In this document: positions 3 through 9,302 of the stretch, piece by piece
Position numbering within the stretch: position 1 is the stretch's first letter
Layout of the letters: each line of letters starts with the position of its first letter
NCBI GenBank assembly: GCA_965198115.1
Contig: OZ240241.1
Coordinates: 1,088,001 to 1,152,000 of the forward strand
Source: Candidatus Latescibacterota bacterium
GTDB taxonomy: Bacteria > Latescibacterota > UBA2968
DNA length: 64,000 nt
Direction of reading: 5' to 3'
Notes under the pieces: model-generated
Database searches by the model: none
What the model was told of the DNA's origin: nothing
The model's input: only the letters and a program-made list of their open reading frames with translations
Program-made: the position numbers and the translations under genes

Positions 3-2231
3 GTCTGCGCCGAACAGGAAGGGGACTACGCGATCAGCATCAAGGGGAGGGGATTCGGGACACAGATCACGACTGAGTTCGACGAGCAACTGCGCAACTC
101 CTCGTGCACCTTCTGTGGGCAATGCGTGCAGACCTGTCCGACGGGCGCACTTGCAGACAGGAAGGCTCTGCGTGCAATGGACGCGCCTGGCGAAATCGAG
201 GAGACGCGCTCGGTTTGTCCTTACTGTGGCGTGGGCTGCTCGGTCGATCTGATGACAAAAGAAGATCGACTCATCGGAATCCGTCCGGCTATGGATGGGC
301 CCGCCAACGAGGGAGCCCTGTGCGTGAAGGGGCAGTTTGCGTTCGACTTCGTTCAACATTCCGACCGATTGAAGCGGCCTCTTGTGCGGAACGGTCAAGG
401 GGACCTAGAGGAAACGGACTGGGATACTGCCCTCGACCGGGCCGCGGACGGCTTCAGGTCCGTGTTGGCCGAACACGGGCGTCACGCCATCTACGGTGTG
501 GCATCAGGAAGAACCCCGTCCGAGGCCAACTACATCATGCAAAAGTTCATCCGAGTGGGGTTCGGGTCCAATTACATAGACAACTGTAGCCGTGCCTGAC
601 ACGCTCCCACGGTTGCCGGTCTGGCAGCCACGATCGGAAGAGGAGCGATGTCGAACCCCCTGGAGGACATGGAAAAGCCCGATGTCATCTTCTGCATCGG
701 GACGAACATGACCGAATGCCATCCCGTTGCGGCCACACGAATCAAAAAGGCCGTGGCGCGTGGCGCCAGGCTCGTCGTGGCGGATCCGCGCAGGATCCCG
801 CTCGCAGACATGGCCGACCTCTACCTGCCCCTGCGTGTAGGGTCTGACACGGCACTGCTTCTCGGCATGGCTCACGTTATCGCCCGCGATGGATTGGTCA
901 ATCGCCGGTTTGTCGACGATCGAACAACCGAGAGCGACCCGTTCCTCGAACACGTTACCCAGTCCACGCCGGAATGGGCCGAACGGATATCTGGCGTTCC
1001 AGCCAGGGACATCGAGCGGGCAGCCAAGTGGTACGGGGAGGCCGAACGGGGTGCCATTTACTATACCCTGGGCATCACCGAACACATCTGCGGCGTCGAC
1101 AATGTGCAGAGCTTGTGCAACCTGGCCTTGATGACCGGCAACATCGGTCGAGAGGGAACAGGCGTGAACCCCATGCGTGGCCAAAACAACATCCAGGGCG
1201 CCGGTGACAGCGGGGCGATCCCGTCCAATTATCCGGGATTTCAGTCGGTCGAAGATCCGACTAATCAGAAAAAGTTCGCAGCGGCCTACGGGCGGGAAGT
1301 CGACCTGCAAAAAGGGATCACAAAGGTCCGGGCCCTCGAACAGTGTGGCGAGCACATCCACGCTATGTTGATCGACGGCGAGAACACGGTGGTTTCGGAT
1401 CCGGACAGGGCACATTGCGAACACGCCCTGGATGCGCTCAAACACCTGGTGGTGATCGACATCTTTCTGACGGAGACGGCCGAACTCGCCGATGTCGTCC
1501 TGCCTGCAACAGCGTGGGCTGAGACGGATGGCGTCTTTACGAACACCGAAAGACGCGTTCAGCGGGTCAGGGCGGCGGTATCACCGCAGGGTGACGCCAA
1601 ACCCGATTGGTGGATTGTCTGCCAAATTGCAAGACGCCTGGGCTTCGAGGGTTTCCAGTTTGACGATCCCAAATCGATTTTCAACGAACTTTGCAGTCTG
1701 TCCACAATCTACGCTGGGTTGAATTGGGACCGGGTCGAAAAAGGCGAATACCAGTGGCCTGTTCCCGAAGACGGCCATCCCGGGACGCCCATCCTTCACG
1801 AGGGCGAATTTCCGAACGGCCGCGGTATCTTCAAAGTCATCGGCTATCGGGATCCTGCAGAGACGATCGACGAGGATTACCCGGTCTGGCTCACGACGGG
1901 GCGGCGGCTCGCCTCCTACCACACTCGAACCCAGACTGGCCGGGCCAGGGGTATCGACTATTTGCTTTCGGAGGAGGCTTTGGAGGTTCATCCCGATGAT
2001 GTCTCGGCGTGGGGTCTGAGGGACGGCGCCTGGTGCTCGATCGCCAGTCGCCGGGGAACCGTTCGGGTCAAAGTCCGCGCAACCGACCGGTCACCAAGGG
2101 GGACGGTCTTCGCGAGTTTCAGCTTCAACGACGTGCCCATCAACACCTTGACCGGCTCGGGCTACGACCCCACGACCGACACGGCCGAACTGAAAGTCTG
2201 TCCGGTCAGGGTCGAACCTGACGAGGGGTGA
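3..2231 (+). CDS. fdhF: Selenocysteine-containing formate dehydrogenase alpha subunit (5' end outside window); the two track ORFs 126-599 and 648-2231 are one gene read through TGA 597-599
   Basis: Frame is open from position 3 (CTFCGQCVQTCP and CPYCGVGC Fe-S motifs). NCSRA-TGA-HAPTVAGLAATIGRGAMSN continues in frame and matches the FDH C-x-R-x-U-H active site. Downstream are the molybdopterin oxidoreductase motifs RGQNNIQG and TNTERRVQ. Confidence 0.95.
597..629 (+). promoter_or_regulatory. Sec UGA codon plus bacterial SECIS hairpin
   Basis: TGA, an 11-nt spacer, then GGTTGCC-GGTCT-GGCAGCC (611-629), closely resembling the E. coli fdhF SECIS. Confidence 0.9.
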
Positions 2232-3052: not shown

Positions 3053-4834
3053 ATGTCGACCGATTCCATCACTGATCGGATCGACGCCCTCCGCGACCTC
3101 ATGCGGGATGAGGGGGTTGCGGCCTTCCTCGTTCCCAGCACTGACGAGCACCAGAACGAGTATGTGCCCGCGTGGTGGCGACGACGGGAGTGGATCTCCG
3201 GTTTCACCGGGTCGGCGGGCGACGTGGTCGTAACGACGGTCGATGCGAAGCTATGGACCGACAGCCGGTACCATCTGCAAGCGGCCGAGCAGTTGAAAGG
3301 CTCTGGCGTCGAACTGATGAAAATCGGACGGCCTGATGTGCCGACCCTGGCCGAGTGGCTGGCGTCGACCCTTTCGAGGGATGAGAGGGTCGGATTCGAT
3401 CCCGATGTCCTCTCGAGAAGGGTCCACTCGGACCTGCTCGAAGAGCTGTCACGGAAGGGGATAGAGCTGCATCCCCTGGAGCGGAACCTGGTCGACAAGA
3501 TCTGGACCGACCGCCCGGACGTGTCCAATCGGTCTGTGCGAGTGCTCGAAGAGACTTATGCGGGCGAGCCGGTTCGCGATAAGCTAACGCGTGTGCGTGA
3601 GAAGATGGCCGAGGCTGGAGCCGACGTGCACATCCTTTCATCGCTGGACGCGATTGCGTGGCTCTTTAACCTGCGCGGTGACGATGTAGACTACAACCCT
3701 GTTTTTCTGGCTCACGCGGCGGTGACGTCGGATTCCGCGTATCTCTTCATCAATGAACGCAAGCTGAATGGCGACGTTCGGGCTGCCCTGGACGGTGACG
3801 TAGAGATTCGCCCCTACGAAGCCGTCGGTGCGTTCGTTGCTTCGTGTCAGTCCGACGCGCTTCTGATTTGGGCGGACCCCGAGGCGACAAGCCACAACCT
3901 TGCGCCCGAGAAGGGTGTGGAAAAGCGGTCTCCCGTGGTCGACCTCAAGGCCGTGAAGAATCCGGTGGAACTCAATGGCTTCCGAAGGGCGCACATCGAG
4001 GACGGTGTCGCCATGGTGGCCTTCATCAGATGGCTCGAGGAACACGTTCCCGCAGGCGACGTCGACGAAATGCGGGCTGCCGAGAAGTTGCTGTCGTTTC
4101 GTCGGAAAGGAAACGGGTTCGTCGGAGCCAGTTTCGGAACGATCTCCTCCTACGGGCCCCACGGCGCAATGAATCACTACGCGGTGAGTAACGAGTCCAA
4201 CATACCGCTCGGCACAGACTCGCTGTATCTGGTCGACTCTGGAGGACAGTACAGTTACGGCACGACGGACATCACCCGAACGTTCTGTTTCGGAAAGCCC
4301 ACGCACGAGCAGGTCGAGATGTACACGCGCGTTCTGAAAGGACATATCGCCATCTGCACCCTATCCTTTCCCGAGGGCACCTTCGGAAGGCAATTGGATC
4401 TAGCGGCTCGCAAGCCGCTCTGGGAGGCAGGTCGAAACTATGGCCACGGAACCGGTCACGGAATCGGCCACTATCTGAATGTGCACGAAGGCCCCATTTC
4501 AATCGGCCCTCGCGGCCAGGAGGTGGCCCTGGCTACGGGCCACGTGATTTCCAACGAACCCGGCTACTACGAAGACGGAGCGTATGGAATCCGTATCGAG
4601 AACCTTCTCGCTGTAGTACCGGATCCCGATCGCTCAGCTGGAGACCAGGCTTTTTTGAAGTTCGAGAACTTGACCCGCTGCCCGATTGCGACGAATCTGG
4701 TTGACGTCAGCCTTCTCGATCAGGATGAAAGGGCCTGGCTCAACGATTTCCATCGAATAGTTCGCGAATCGCTTTCCCCGCATCTCGACACGCCGGGGCA
4801 GCAATGGCTGTCCGAACGGACGGAACCCATCTAG
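3053..4834 (+). CDS. pepP: Xaa-Pro aminopeptidase (M24B)
   Basis: Motifs DEHQNEY, SGFTGSAG, DSGGQY..GTTDITRT, HGTGHGIG..LNVHE, SNEPGYY, GIRIEN. Confidence 0.93.
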   Translation: MSTDSITDRIDALRDLMRDEGVAAFLVPSTDEHQNEYVPAWWRRREWISGFTGSAGDVVVTTVDAKLWTDSRYHLQAAEQLKGSGVELMKIGRPDVPTLAEWLASTLSRDERVGFDPDVLSRRVHSDLLEELSRKGIELHPLERNLVDKIWTDRPDVSNRSVRVLEETYAGEPVRDKLTRVREKMAEAGADVHILSSLDAIAWLFNLRGDDVDYNPVFLAHAAVTSDSAYLFINERKLNGDVRAALDGDVEIRPYEAVGAFVASCQSDALLIWADPEATSHNLAPEKGVEKRSPVVDLKAVKNPVELNGFRRAHIEDGVAMVAFIRWLEEHVPAGDVDEMRAAEKLLSFRRKGNGFVGASFGTISSYGPHGAMNHYAVSNESNIPLGTDSLYLVDSGGQYSYGTTDITRTFCFGKPTHEQVEMYTRVLKGHIAICTLSFPEGTFGRQLDLAARKPLWEAGRNYGHGTGHGIGHYLNVHEGPISIGPRGQEVALATGHVISNEPGYYEDGAYGIRIENLLAVVPDPDRSAGDQAFLKFENLTRCPIATNLVDVSLLDQDERAWLNDFHRIVRESLSPHLDTPGQQWLSERTEPI

Positions 4835-5065: not shown

Positions 5066-5137
5066 CAAAAAGAGGCGCCGACCTTGCGAAAGATCGACGC
5101 CTCGGGGGAATGTACACCGACACACACACTTGCCACT
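5066..5137 (-). ncRNA. Candidate sigma28-dependent small RNA (~70 nt) complementary to the flagellin 5' UTR
   Basis: Promoter TAAA-N15-GCCGATAC immediately upstream. A 14-bp stem (5072-5103) plus U5 forms a terminator whose two G.U pairs form only on the minus strand. No ORF. The 5' part GUGUGUGUCGGUG is the exact complement of flagellin mRNA at 6760-6772. Confidence 0.6.
5067..5103 (-). terminator. Intrinsic terminator
   Basis: GAGGCGUCGAUCUU-UCGC-AAGGUCGGCGCCUC-UUUUU on the minus strand. Confidence 0.85.
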
Positions 5138-5141
5138 TATT

Positions 5142-5168
5142 GTATCGGCGTGTTCTCGGATCTGTTTA
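5142..5168 (-). promoter_or_regulatory. sigma28 (FliA)-type promoter
   Basis: TAAA (5168-5165), N15, GCCGATAC (5149-5142), versus consensus TAAA-N15-GCCGATAA. Confidence 0.75.
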
Positions 5169-5175
5169 GCGGAAA

Positions 5176-5394
5176 TTACGTAAGACGTGCGACGGCACCA
5201 GGACCGTTCGGGTGGAGGGGAAGCCCCTCAGCACGATCCGACACGGCGTAGACCGTTTCTTTGACGTTGCTGCTTTCCAGGTCGATCACGTAGTGAACCC
5301 GACTCGCGTCCCAACCTTGCCTCTGAGCGAGCGCGATCAGCACCCGATGGAGTTCTTCCGCGGTTGTTCCGAATTTGACTGCGATCCGTTCCAT
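5176..5394 (-). CDS. Small hypothetical protein (72 aa)
   Basis: GGAGG RBS upstream of ATG 5394 and a TTGACA box further upstream; no recognisable motif. Confidence 0.55.
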   Translation of the reverse strand: MERIAVKFGTTAEELHRVLIALAQRQGWDASRVHYVIDLESSNVKETVYAVSDRAEGLPLHPNGPGAVARLT

Positions 5395-5467
5395 TATCTG
5401 ACCTCCGAGCGATCGTCCATCTAACCTAAAGGTCTGAAGACCACACAGAGCTGTCAAGCACCAACAG

Positions 5468-5490
5468 AAAAAGCCCCATCCGTGGGGCTT
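5468..5490 (-). terminator. Intrinsic terminator downstream of flagellin A
   Basis: AAGCCCCA-CGGA-TGGGGC followed by TTTTT on the minus strand. Confidence 0.8.
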
Positions 5491-5551
5491 CTTTCGTTCG
5501 AGGACCGAGCGAGGCCTGCTCTTCCTTGAGCGGCTAGGGTGGGGGTCTCTG

Positions 5552-6737
5552 TTACAGGAGCGAGATGACGCCCGCCGCTTGGACGTTGGCTTGCGCGAAG
5601 ACGGAAAGGCCGGTGTGTGAGAATCTGGCTTCTGGCCAGCGCCGATACCTCGAGTGCCACATCGGCATCCCTGATCGTAGAATCGCTGGCCTGATCGTTC
5701 TCCGCCATGACCTCGTTCGCACGGATATTCGTGCCCAGTCGGTTCTGTATCGAGCCGAGTCCACCGCGTGTCTGCACGACCTCCTGGATGGCAATATCGA
5801 TGTTCAAAATTGCGGACTGTGACGCCGAAGCAGAGGAGACGGAAGCAGATCCCAGGTTTAGCACGGCGCCAGAGGCTCGCATGTCACGAATCGTCGTCTC
5901 GATCCGGTGGACCGAGCCATCGTCGGGGCCGACCTGAAAAGTGCCACCGGTTCCAGACTCGATTTCGAGGGCGAGACCATTCAAGTCACCGTCGCGATAG
6001 CCATCGGTGGCCGGGTTAATGCCCTCGGCAGCGTTCTGGCCGCTCAGGACGAGCTGAATTCCAAGACGGTCGAAGTTGGCCACGACCGAAGAACCCGACG
6101 CTACGACGCCGCCCACGCCGTCCGTGTCCAGCGCGGCACCGATCGCGACCGTCTGTGTTACGGTACCGTTTCCAAGCGAAATGCTGCGGTCTCCGGCTGT
6201 GTCGGCAAACAGATAGCGACCGGTCTGGGCGCCGGAGATCTGAGTGGATGTGAGGCCGGTGGTGGGGGAGGCGAGGGCGGTGGATACTGTGACATCTGAA
6301 CTCACCGAGTTGCCGAAGCCGGTCAGCAGCGACGTGTTGTTGTAGGTGGTTGCCTGTGCTATCCGGTCGATCTCGTTGATGAGCTGAACGAACTCGGCGT
6401 TCACGGATTCGCGGTTTTGGTTGTTAACGGTCGAGCTGGCCGACTGAACGGCGAGCTCCCGCATTCTTATCAGGACGGTGTTGACCTCGTTCAGAGCGCC
6501 TTCGGCGGTCTGAATCAGATTGATCGCCTGTTCTGAATTCCGAATGCCCTGGAGGAATCCGGAGATTTCCGACCTCAGTCCTTCAGAAACGCTGAGGCCG
6601 GCCGCGTCGTCGGCCGCTCTATTGACTTTGAGCCCCGATGACAAGCGTTCGATTCGCAGTGTGAGATCCCTGGTCGTGTTCCCAAGGATTCGCATGGAGT
6701 TGAACGCAGGGATGTTGGTGTTGACTCGGAGTGGCAT
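5552..6737 (-). CDS. fliC: Flagellin A, with an apparent 2-nt deletion frameshift near 5613-5620 displacing the last ~20 codons
   Basis: N-terminal RLSSGLKVNRAADDAAGL...QTAEGAL..MRELAVQS and C-terminal IRDADVA..SQIL. The canonical end TGLSVFAQANVQAAGVISLL* lies in another frame ending at 5552. Confidence 0.92.
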
Positions 6738-6851
6738 GTGAACACCCTTGCGATGGCCAGTGTGTGTCGGTGGTTCTTCAGTTCCTCCCGTGATGGAAAA
6801 CGCCGCCCGTGGAGTGTGTGTGGTCCAAGGCGTTTCCCGGGTCTACGTGGT

Positions 6852-6879
6852 ATATCGGATACGCTTGAGCGAATCTTGA
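6852..6879 (-). promoter_or_regulatory. sigma28-type promoter of flagellin A
   Basis: TCAA(G), N16, TCCGATAT, about 115 nt upstream of the ATG. Confidence 0.6.
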
Positions 6880-8105: not shown

Positions 8106-9302
8106 ATGTCTGCGCTGGTGGTCAATCATAACATAATGGCGATCAACACCGGGCGCCATCTGAAGATCAACAACAGGGGTCTCGGGACGAATCTCGAACG
8201 TCTGTCGTCTGGTCTGAGAATCAATCGGGGAGCTGACGACCCGTCGGGTCTGCAGGTTTCCGAGGGATTTCGAGCAGAAATCGGGGGCCTTTTGACGGGC
8301 ACCCGGAATGCCGAACACGGCACGAATCTGATCCAAACGGCAGAAGGGGCTTTGAATGAGGTCAGTGCCATTCTGCTGAGGATGCGTGAGCTGGCGGTCC
8401 AGTCGGCTTCCTCGACCGTGAACGACGGCAACCGAGAAGCGATCAATGCCGAAGTCGTTCAGCTGACGTCGGAAATCGACCGAATCGCAAACTCTGCGAC
8501 CTACAACGAGCAGACTTTACTCCGTGGGTTCGGCAACACGGTCAGCCAGGATCTGACTGCCTCGAGCGTGCTTCAGTCGACGACGACAGGCGTCGTGGAC
8601 GTGAAAGTTACCGGGGCGGATTCTGGAAATTACATCTTTATCGACAGCGATCCGACAGACAACCAGATTACTTTGGGGAATGGGGTCGCAACGCAGACGA
8701 TCGACCTCGGTGCCGCCCTCGACAATGACGCCGTAGGTGGTGTCGTCGCGACCAGTTCGAGCATCATCGCGAACTTCGACCGTCTTGGGGTCCTGATCAC
8801 ACTGTCGGGTGCCCGTGCGGCGACCCTGGCTGATCCTGCGACGGACGGCTATCGGGATGGGGAGCTCAACGGGTTGACCCTGGCGGTCGATGGGGGAACG
8901 GGCGGCAGCATCCAGGTGGGTGCCGACAACCGGGCCGTCGACCGAATCGAGATCACGATCAACGATCTGTCCGCAACGGGGGCAGCGCTCGCACTGGGCG
9001 GCCTTTCTTTGAGCACGCTCGAGAGTTCGAGGAGCGCGATCTCCTCGCTCGACCTGGCGATCCAGACGATCGCCCAGATTCGAGGCGATCTCGGTGCACA
9101 GCAGAACAGGCTCGGGCACACCATCCGGAAGAACAACATCGCGATCGAGAACATGACAGCATCAGAATCTTCGATCCGAGACACAGATGTGGCGGCCGAG
9201 GTCACGACGTTCACGAAGAACCAGGTGCTGGTCCAGTCGAGCACGGCGCTCCTGGCCCAGGCCAACGCACAACCCCAGAACGCGTTGTCGCTGCTGCAGT
9301 AG
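8106..9302 (+). CDS. fliC: Flagellin B (intact)
   Basis: RLSSGLRINRGADDPSGL, QTAEGALNEV..MRELAVQS, and RGDLGAQQNRL..SESSIRDTDVA..LAQANAQPQNALSLLQ. Confidence 0.95.
   Translation: MSALVVNHNIMAINTGRHLKINNRGLGTNLERLSSGLRINRGADDPSGLQVSEGFRAEIGGLLTGTRNAEHGTNLIQTAEGALNEVSAILLRMRELAVQSASSTVNDGNREAINAEVVQLTSEIDRIANSATYNEQTLLRGFGNTVSQDLTASSVLQSTTTGVVDVKVTGADSGNYIFIDSDPTDNQITLGNGVATQTIDLGAALDNDAVGGVVATSSSIIANFDRLGVLITLSGARAATLADPATDGYRDGELNGLTLAVDGGTGGSIQVGADNRAVDRIEITINDLSATGAALALGGLSLSTLESSRSAISSLDLAIQTIAQIRGDLGAQQNRLGHTIRKNNIAIENMTASESSIRDTDVAAEVTTFTKNQVLVQSSTALLAQANAQPQNALSLLQ

Follow-up and report, generated by a model that had tools for sequence, protein, structure and literature searches.

A conserved sigma28-type small RNA gene behind a flagellin gene in an uncultured phylum, with predicted pairing to the flagellin leader

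Described flagellin-regulating small RNAs and the RNA1 gene

Control of the flagellin mix by small RNAs is known from Proteobacteria and Campylobacter. FlaX of Vibrio is reported to lie downstream of a flagellin gene, to pair with the 5' UTR of a minor flagellin at several sites and to shape filament composition, being a sigma54-class RNA that is cut by RNase E from the flaA 3' UTR, is bound by ProQ and targets other flagellins (PMC11879080). FlaY, also from Vibrio, is presented as a sigma28-dependent candidate sponge of FlaX (bioRxiv 10.64898/2026.08.28.747715). The E. coli RNAs UhpU, MotR, FliX and FlgO are described as sigma28-dependent, UTR-derived and Hfq-linked, and as pairing inside the fliC coding sequence (PMC10578931), while the short sigma28-dependent RNAs of Campylobacter, CjNC1 and CjNC4 (PMC4626219) and CJnc170 (FlmR; PMC11187230), are reported to repress flagellar 5' UTRs of the sigma54 class independently of Hfq. 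Outside flagellar control, GcvB is described as an Hfq-dependent, multi-target regulator of an enteric amino-acid transport regulon (PMC4474525), which on yifK pairs with an ACA enhancer sequence immediately before the Shine-Dalgarno (PMC3879156).

The locus studied here lies in a stretch of 64,000 nucleotides (the window) of an 8.4-Mb genome, G000; other G-labels denote relatives and L-labels denote loci. Behind the flagellin A gene (flaA), a small RNA of about 71 nt, RNA1, is predicted on the minus strand (5066..5136, with the 5' end inferred from the -10 box). Like FlaX, RNA1 is encoded behind a flagellin gene and has a predicted pairing in the 5' UTR of a minor flagellin and, as in the FlaX/FlaY pair, a sigma28-type RNA (RNA2) is predicted to pair with it. 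Unlike FlaX, it is only about 70 nt long, has its own sigma28-type promoter and the adjacent gene as its predicted target, and occurs in hosts with no match to ProQ or Hfq; flaA and RNA1 are separated by a terminator, a small gene (orf72) and a further promoter, whereas FlaX is processed from a 3' UTR. No kinship in sequence with FlaX is indicated by the Rfam search, which gave no match. With the E. coli RNAs, RNA1 would share sigma28 control and pairing with a flagellin mRNA, but it is predicted to pair in the leader and in genomes where Hfq was not detected. The Hfq-independent repression described for the Campylobacter RNAs is what is proposed for RNA1, whose target would, in contrast to theirs, be a sigma28-class flagellin reached through a GU repeat. 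As with GcvB on yifK, the predicted duplex adjoins the Shine-Dalgarno over ACA triplets; the sequences are unrelated and, unlike RNA1, GcvB needs Hfq and has many targets. By analogy, RNA1 would resemble FlaX and the Campylobacter RNAs in its working, whereas it lacks those defining features of FlaX that can be tested. If this is true, small RNA control of the flagellin mix reaches an uncultured phylum, and its occurrence without detectable Hfq or ProQ would suggest that the logic of FlaX and FlaY was invented repeatedly.

The RNA1 promoter (5142..5168, minus strand), located by pattern search, consists of a TAAA box (5168-5165), a 15-nt spacer and GCCGATAC (5149-5142), and its assignment to sigma28 follows the general consensus. 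The pattern TAAA-N15-GCCGATA occurs once in the window against none in 100 shuffles, and five times in the whole genome. Both this promoter and the terminator had been described in an earlier note on this DNA and both are in place, the latter (5067..5103, minus strand; from folding and paired-column changes) as a 14-bp stem at 5103-5072 that contains two U-G pairs and has U5 after it (fold z -3.4). The pairing region between them (5104..5136, minus strand; from the alignment), which the same note took to be unstructured, is weakly structured by folding, not fully open. Its core, GCAAG-(GU)n-YGGUG (5133-5115), is near-invariant, and a UUCCC tract comes next. Searches against Rfam 15 gave no match at gathering score in the window, RNA1 included, and five matches at chance level only on eight loci with RNA1 or RNA2. 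The GGA motifs typical of protein sponges of the CsrB/RsmY type were not seen in the G000 RNA1. No published account of RNA1 was found in the literature searched.

In five relatives a first survey with 13-mers located the cassette downstream of the flaA orthologue. Of 53 genomes from the order, 10 yield a full RNA1 with a covariance model built from these five copies and that of G000. Four of these lie outside the training set (G005, G041, G012 and G043), the G043 copy being weaker and without its -10 box. Flagellin was searched in 45 of the 53 genomes and found in 14; all ten copies fall within these 14, and the 31 genomes where flagellin was not found have no full match, counts that come from genomes related by descent and not independent. 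Among flagellin-bearing genomes that are 82-98% complete, RNA1 was not found in G003, G009 and G042, and G006 holds a degenerate remnant only; a pattern search for displaced copies in these and in G043 returned three matches. Weak model matches in G008, G003 (C91 and C33), G006 (C427) and G020 were rejected as RNA1, all lacking the seed. Across 151 genomes of the phylum, strong matches occur in eight genomes of the order only, and those outside it are weak and mostly confined to the terminator part. A metagenome scan gave ten loci, comprising six new copies, three repeats of known sequences and one unrelated. The alignment shows the sigma28 boxes and the seed conserved and the spacer variable. 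The terminator has 96.9% of alignment cells paired and covaries, with 6 of 13 pairs changed on both sides (2 of 500 shuffles as high). Judged by its DNA elements, conservation and covariation, RNA1 is a real, conserved sRNA gene that is absent from catalogues. G003, where RNA1 was not found, has a different short RNA gene of sigma28 type, which carries a terminator and one GGA hairpin of the CsrA type (L154, about 1500-1605, minus strand; G003:C33:10358-10461).

Predicted pairing with the flaA leader and its direction

Comparison with orthologues shows that flaA (5552..6737, minus strand) carries a frameshift some 60 nt short of its normal end, which the earlier note overlooked; identical letters stand in two Logan contigs of one sample, possibly the source of this DNA. 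Its sigma28-type promoter (6852..6879, minus strand) has a double-box form with an extra TCAAG in the spacer, and its leader of about 109 nt (6738..6846, minus strand) has a weak Shine-Dalgarno and no CsrA-type motif. Two sites of complementarity to RNA1 had been proposed in this leader. The first, a perfect 13-nt complement at 6772-6760, i.e., -35 to -23 from the AUG at 6737, is present where it was placed, and complement search and pairing extend it by flanking helices to -42 to -16 (6752..6779, minus strand). The second, a 10-nt complement located by complement search and folding (6813..6822, minus strand), does lie in a hairpin loop (9 of 10 nt), but the stability of the hairpin does not exceed that of shuffles (z +0.3 to +1.0); it is also present in L234 and G041 and weak elsewhere.

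We propose that RNA1, of about 70 nt and transcribed by sigma28, would use its GU-rich 5' half to pair with the CA-rich sequence that immediately precedes the ribosome-binding site of flaA, and would repress translation of this one minor flagellin, either by blocking 30S loading or by covering an enhancer of the ACA type, in the manner of GcvB on yifK. RNA1 would in this way tune filament composition, most other flagellins having CsrA-type motifs instead. To this reading, of a sigma28-dependent sRNA that pairs with the flaA leader and represses it, we give a probability of about 0.5, and on complementarity we consider it likely that pairing with this leader is a main role of RNA1.

Apart from RNA1 itself, perfect complements of at least 13 nt to its 5' 38 nt occur at only five loci in the genome, two of which lie within sigma28-type transcripts, namely the flaA leader and RNA2. 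Of the 7,673 called genes of G000, 3,565 were scored with opening costs, the others having raw energies too weak to pass flaA. By accessibility-corrected energy the flaA leader is the top predicted target; by raw duplex energy it ranks 4th or 14th of 7,673, and the top genome-wide rank that the earlier note had looked for is therefore reached with opening costs and not on raw energy. Comparison among relatives supports the complementarity claimed for this leader, given that flaA is the best-scoring flagellin leader in all six genomes having both parts, with 5-7 recovered leaders per genome. The margin over the next flagellin leader is 0.1 kcal/mol in G036, 0.4 in G005 and 1.5 in G000. One other flagellin leader in G000 (L042, G000:C1:~2510400) and one in G001 (L172) score near flaA and pair across a CsrA-type hairpin, and L028 of G005 and flaB of G036 also come near their own flaA.

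The best RNA1 site falls within -47 to -10 of the flaA leader in all eight pairs, with duplexes of -20 to -34 kcal/mol before opening costs. Against dinucleotide shuffles the outcome varies with the method: plain duplex energy passes in 4 of 6 pairs, the windowed method with opening costs in 5 of 8 (failing in G012, 11/100; G005, 33/100; and L232, 51/100) and cofolding in 7 of 8 (at most 1 of 40; failing in G010, 11/40). RNA1 thus has a conserved complementarity to a flagellar mRNA, G010, G012, G005 and L232 being exceptions depending on the method. Covariation between RNA1 and the leader is anecdotal, since the cross-species matrix shows no general cognate preference, a leader's own RNA1 being the best binder for only 2 of 8. 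Leader changes in L234 and L232 turn Watson-Crick pairs into G-U wobbles and keep the pairing. Lineage-specific perfect helices occur in G041 (12 bp, with its own U-rich RNA1 segment) and in G036 (10 bp, at the RNA1 5' end). In G003, where RNA1 was not found, the flaA leader motif is lost; G009 and G006 keep much of the site though they have no clear RNA1. When the site was searched as an exact 12-mer in 13 relatives, its counts were close to those of the reversed control. In some cofolds the GUGGCA at the RNA1 5' end pairs with UGCCAC across the flaA start codon (6737-6730), letters that also start several other flagellins.

Concerning the direction of the effect, in 7 of 8 pairs the end of the duplex falls at -10 to -17; the duplex adjoins the weak Shine-Dalgarno and spans one to three ACA triplets, a position that favours repression. 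By its ACA counts flaA does not stand out among the flagellins. A less probable reading, with a precedent in some flagellins that FlaX is reported to activate likewise (bioRxiv 10.64898/2026.08.28.747715), is that the pairing takes place as proposed but activates or stabilises the flaA mRNA by freeing its weak ribosome-binding site. Occupancy of the site lowers the opening cost of the ribosome-binding site in 7 of 8 leaders by 0.5-4.3 kcal/mol, most in L232, G036 and G005, which makes activation possible as well. Nonetheless, the change in G000 is only 1.4 kcal/mol, and the duplex ends in those 7 of 8 pairs fall inside the 30S footprint.

CsrA is present and, among the flagellin leaders recovered, the CsrA-type motif occurs in no flaA leader and in most others. 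No match was found to Hfq (PF17209) or ProQ (PF04352) in 14 genomes, some of them incomplete in the case of ProQ, or to KhpB (Jag_N) in five; the long RNA1-flaA duplexes may explain why neither Hfq nor ProQ is needed.

RNA2, a candidate sponge

The longest complement to RNA1 in the genome, 15 nt and perfect (G000:C1:7258363-7258377), lies in RNA2, a conserved sigma28-type non-coding RNA of 220-350 nt (G000:C1:7258130-7258474, minus strand; L038, about 3130-3475). In G000 it takes up 294 nt of non-coding sequence from a sigma28-type promoter to a terminator, upstream of a response-regulator-like gene, and its orthologues are found at L120-L124, L126, L128-L130, L136 and L142. Of 27 loci with such a gene 18 were read: all 12 from flagellin-bearing genomes contain the RNA2 stretch, five from genomes where flagellin was not found (four) or not sought (one) lack it, and one locus was too short to judge. 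A hairpin loop of RNA2 holds GACCUC, which resembles an anti-Shine-Dalgarno, and RNA2 could itself act as a base-pairing regulator. The frame of a small ORF in RNA2 is not conserved by eye, and the GGA counts of RNA2 exceed expectation only modestly.

The RNA2 promoter (G000:C1:7258474, minus strand) has the same double-box form with TCAAG as that of flaA. This pattern, which was defined post hoc from these two promoters, has exactly two matches genome-wide, the flaA and RNA2 promoters themselves, and occurs in 5 of 6 flaA promoters versus none of 30 other flagellin promoters. The common form ties RNA2 to flaA independently of RNA1 and points to a sigma28 sub-regulon. A convergent sigma28-type promoter (G000:C1:7258075, plus strand) is found in 11 of the 12 RNA2 loci; the predicted start of its transcript is an inverted near-copy of the RNA2 GCCGACCUC segment, from which it runs antisense into RNA2.

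RNA2 may titrate RNA1 in some lineages, and is regarded as a candidate sponge with mixed support. Against shuffles, RNA1-RNA2 pairing passes in 3 of 9 genomes by the windowed method (G000, G001 and G036) and in 2 of 9 by cofolding (G041 and G005), with no genome passing both when judged strictly. In G005 the cofold pairs through the 5' hairpin instead of the homologous site, G012 fails despite a 14-of-15 match by eye, and in genus g2 (three of the nine genomes) the site is missing and pairing fails throughout; the flaA site, too, has decayed in this genus. A tentative extension is a chaperone-free, RNA-only flagellin switch, in which a special sigma28 promoter subclass would co-drive flaA and a decoy RNA2 of about 220-350 nt carrying the same site, RNA1 would silence flaA until RNA2 absorbs it, and the convergent antisense promoter would check RNA2, so that three RNAs would set the timing and dose of one subunit without Hfq, ProQ or KhpB.

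The length of the perfect complement also fits a different reading, that RNA2 or other RNAs are the main partner of RNA1 and the flaA pairing is secondary. RNA1 is retained despite a broken or leaderless flaA in G001, G002, G007, G010 and L234, and in several relatives flaA is decaying while RNA1 is kept, which makes other partners likely; on this distribution flaA is probably not the sole one. In G001 the flaA leader is lost and both RNA1 and the RNA2 site are present, and in G000 and G001 another flagellin leader comes near the flaA score. However, the absence of the RNA2 site from genus g2 and the disagreement between methods, in comparison with the more consistent flaA pairing, render it rather unlikely that flaA is secondary.

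Other readings of the locus and the state of the flagellar genes

Between flaA and RNA1 lie a terminator hairpin (5468..5490, minus strand), which parts flaA from what follows, a TTGACA box (5452..5457, minus strand), present upstream of orf72 in six genomes and presumed to act as its sigma70-like promoter, and orf72 itself (5176..5394, minus strand), which encodes a conserved 72-aa protein without a known family and in most loci immediately precedes RNA1. It has 23 homologues and a confident alpha/beta structure prediction (pLDDT 87), with no Pfam family, no atlas match and no clear match in fold comparison (best Z 4.6). It is lineage-restricted and carries a conserved C-terminal LPLHP motif. 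No terminator-like hairpin was seen between orf72 and RNA1 at the window locus, a point overlooked in the earlier note, and RNA1 can therefore also be the 3' end of the orf72 mRNA, which the RNA1 terminator may end too. It could be argued from this that the stretch is nothing but the 3' UTR and terminator of orf72, with AC/GT repeats that bind protein or are of low complexity and pair with no RNA, as the dinucleotide repeat of the seed and the lack of cognate preference would allow. This is improbable, given that the sigma28 boxes are conserved, that RNA1 occurs without orf72 beside it in G012, that the GU sense is always in RNA1 and the CA sense in its partners, and that wobble-keeping changes occur.

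The inverted repeat that the earlier note named as a caveat, formed by the 13-mers on either side of flaA, is present and perfect over 13 bp (5115-5127 and 6760-6772). That these repeats serve as a DNA inversion switch is very unlikely: Watson-Crick identity spans only 7-12 nt in the seven other pairs, none of the 13 distinct loci covering flaA and RNA1 differs in gene order or orientation, no recombinase is seen among six neighbouring proteins scanned, and Logan contigs, which drop rare variants, hold no inversion joint. That RNA1 is the guide of an RNA-guided DNA-binding flagellin repressor of the TldR type, whose guides are reported to target flagellin genes (bioRxiv 10.1101/2025.07.22.666180), is very unlikely, because the adjacent gene encodes a 72-aa protein that matches no Pfam family and no clear fold, RNA1 has no scaffold beyond its terminator, its targets require bulges and wobbles, and the six neighbours scanned at this locus include no TnpB-like gene.

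The favoured reading, of repression of flaA by RNA1, has to be seen against the condition of the flagellar genes in G000. FliP and FlhA have no match in this genome, about 14.8 kb of the flagellar operon of its congener G001 is missing at a single junction (G000:C1:4520149-4520152), and fliA, fliF, fliD, flgK and flgL are frameshifted. Six of its seven flagellins are disrupted, the only intact one lying at 8106-9302 of the window. At L015 (G000:C1:~773743) a flagellin has its first ~17 codons replaced by unrelated sequence, possibly an insertion. In 13 control regions frame changes affect 14 of 152 orthologues, so that assembly error may account for part of the disruptions. The simplest reading of these sequences is an ongoing loss of motility in G000, where the RNA1-flaA circuit is probably a recent relic.

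The feed-forward loop of the earlier note, in which sigma28 would switch on both flagellin and sRNA, is upheld as far as the conserved sigma28-type sRNA gene and its complementarity to flaA are concerned. In G000 it is probably not working, given the frameshifted fliA, the lack of fliP and flhA and the loss of about 15 kb of the operon. In contrast to G000, fliA is intact in all ten relatives tested and fliP is found in 12 of 13 flagellin-bearing relatives; activity of the circuit is more likely in G036, G041, G005 and G012, which by sequence have intact fliA, fliP and flaA. G005 also encodes another FliA-like sigma factor, which scores above the family cut-off (G005:C435:5424-6083; L113).
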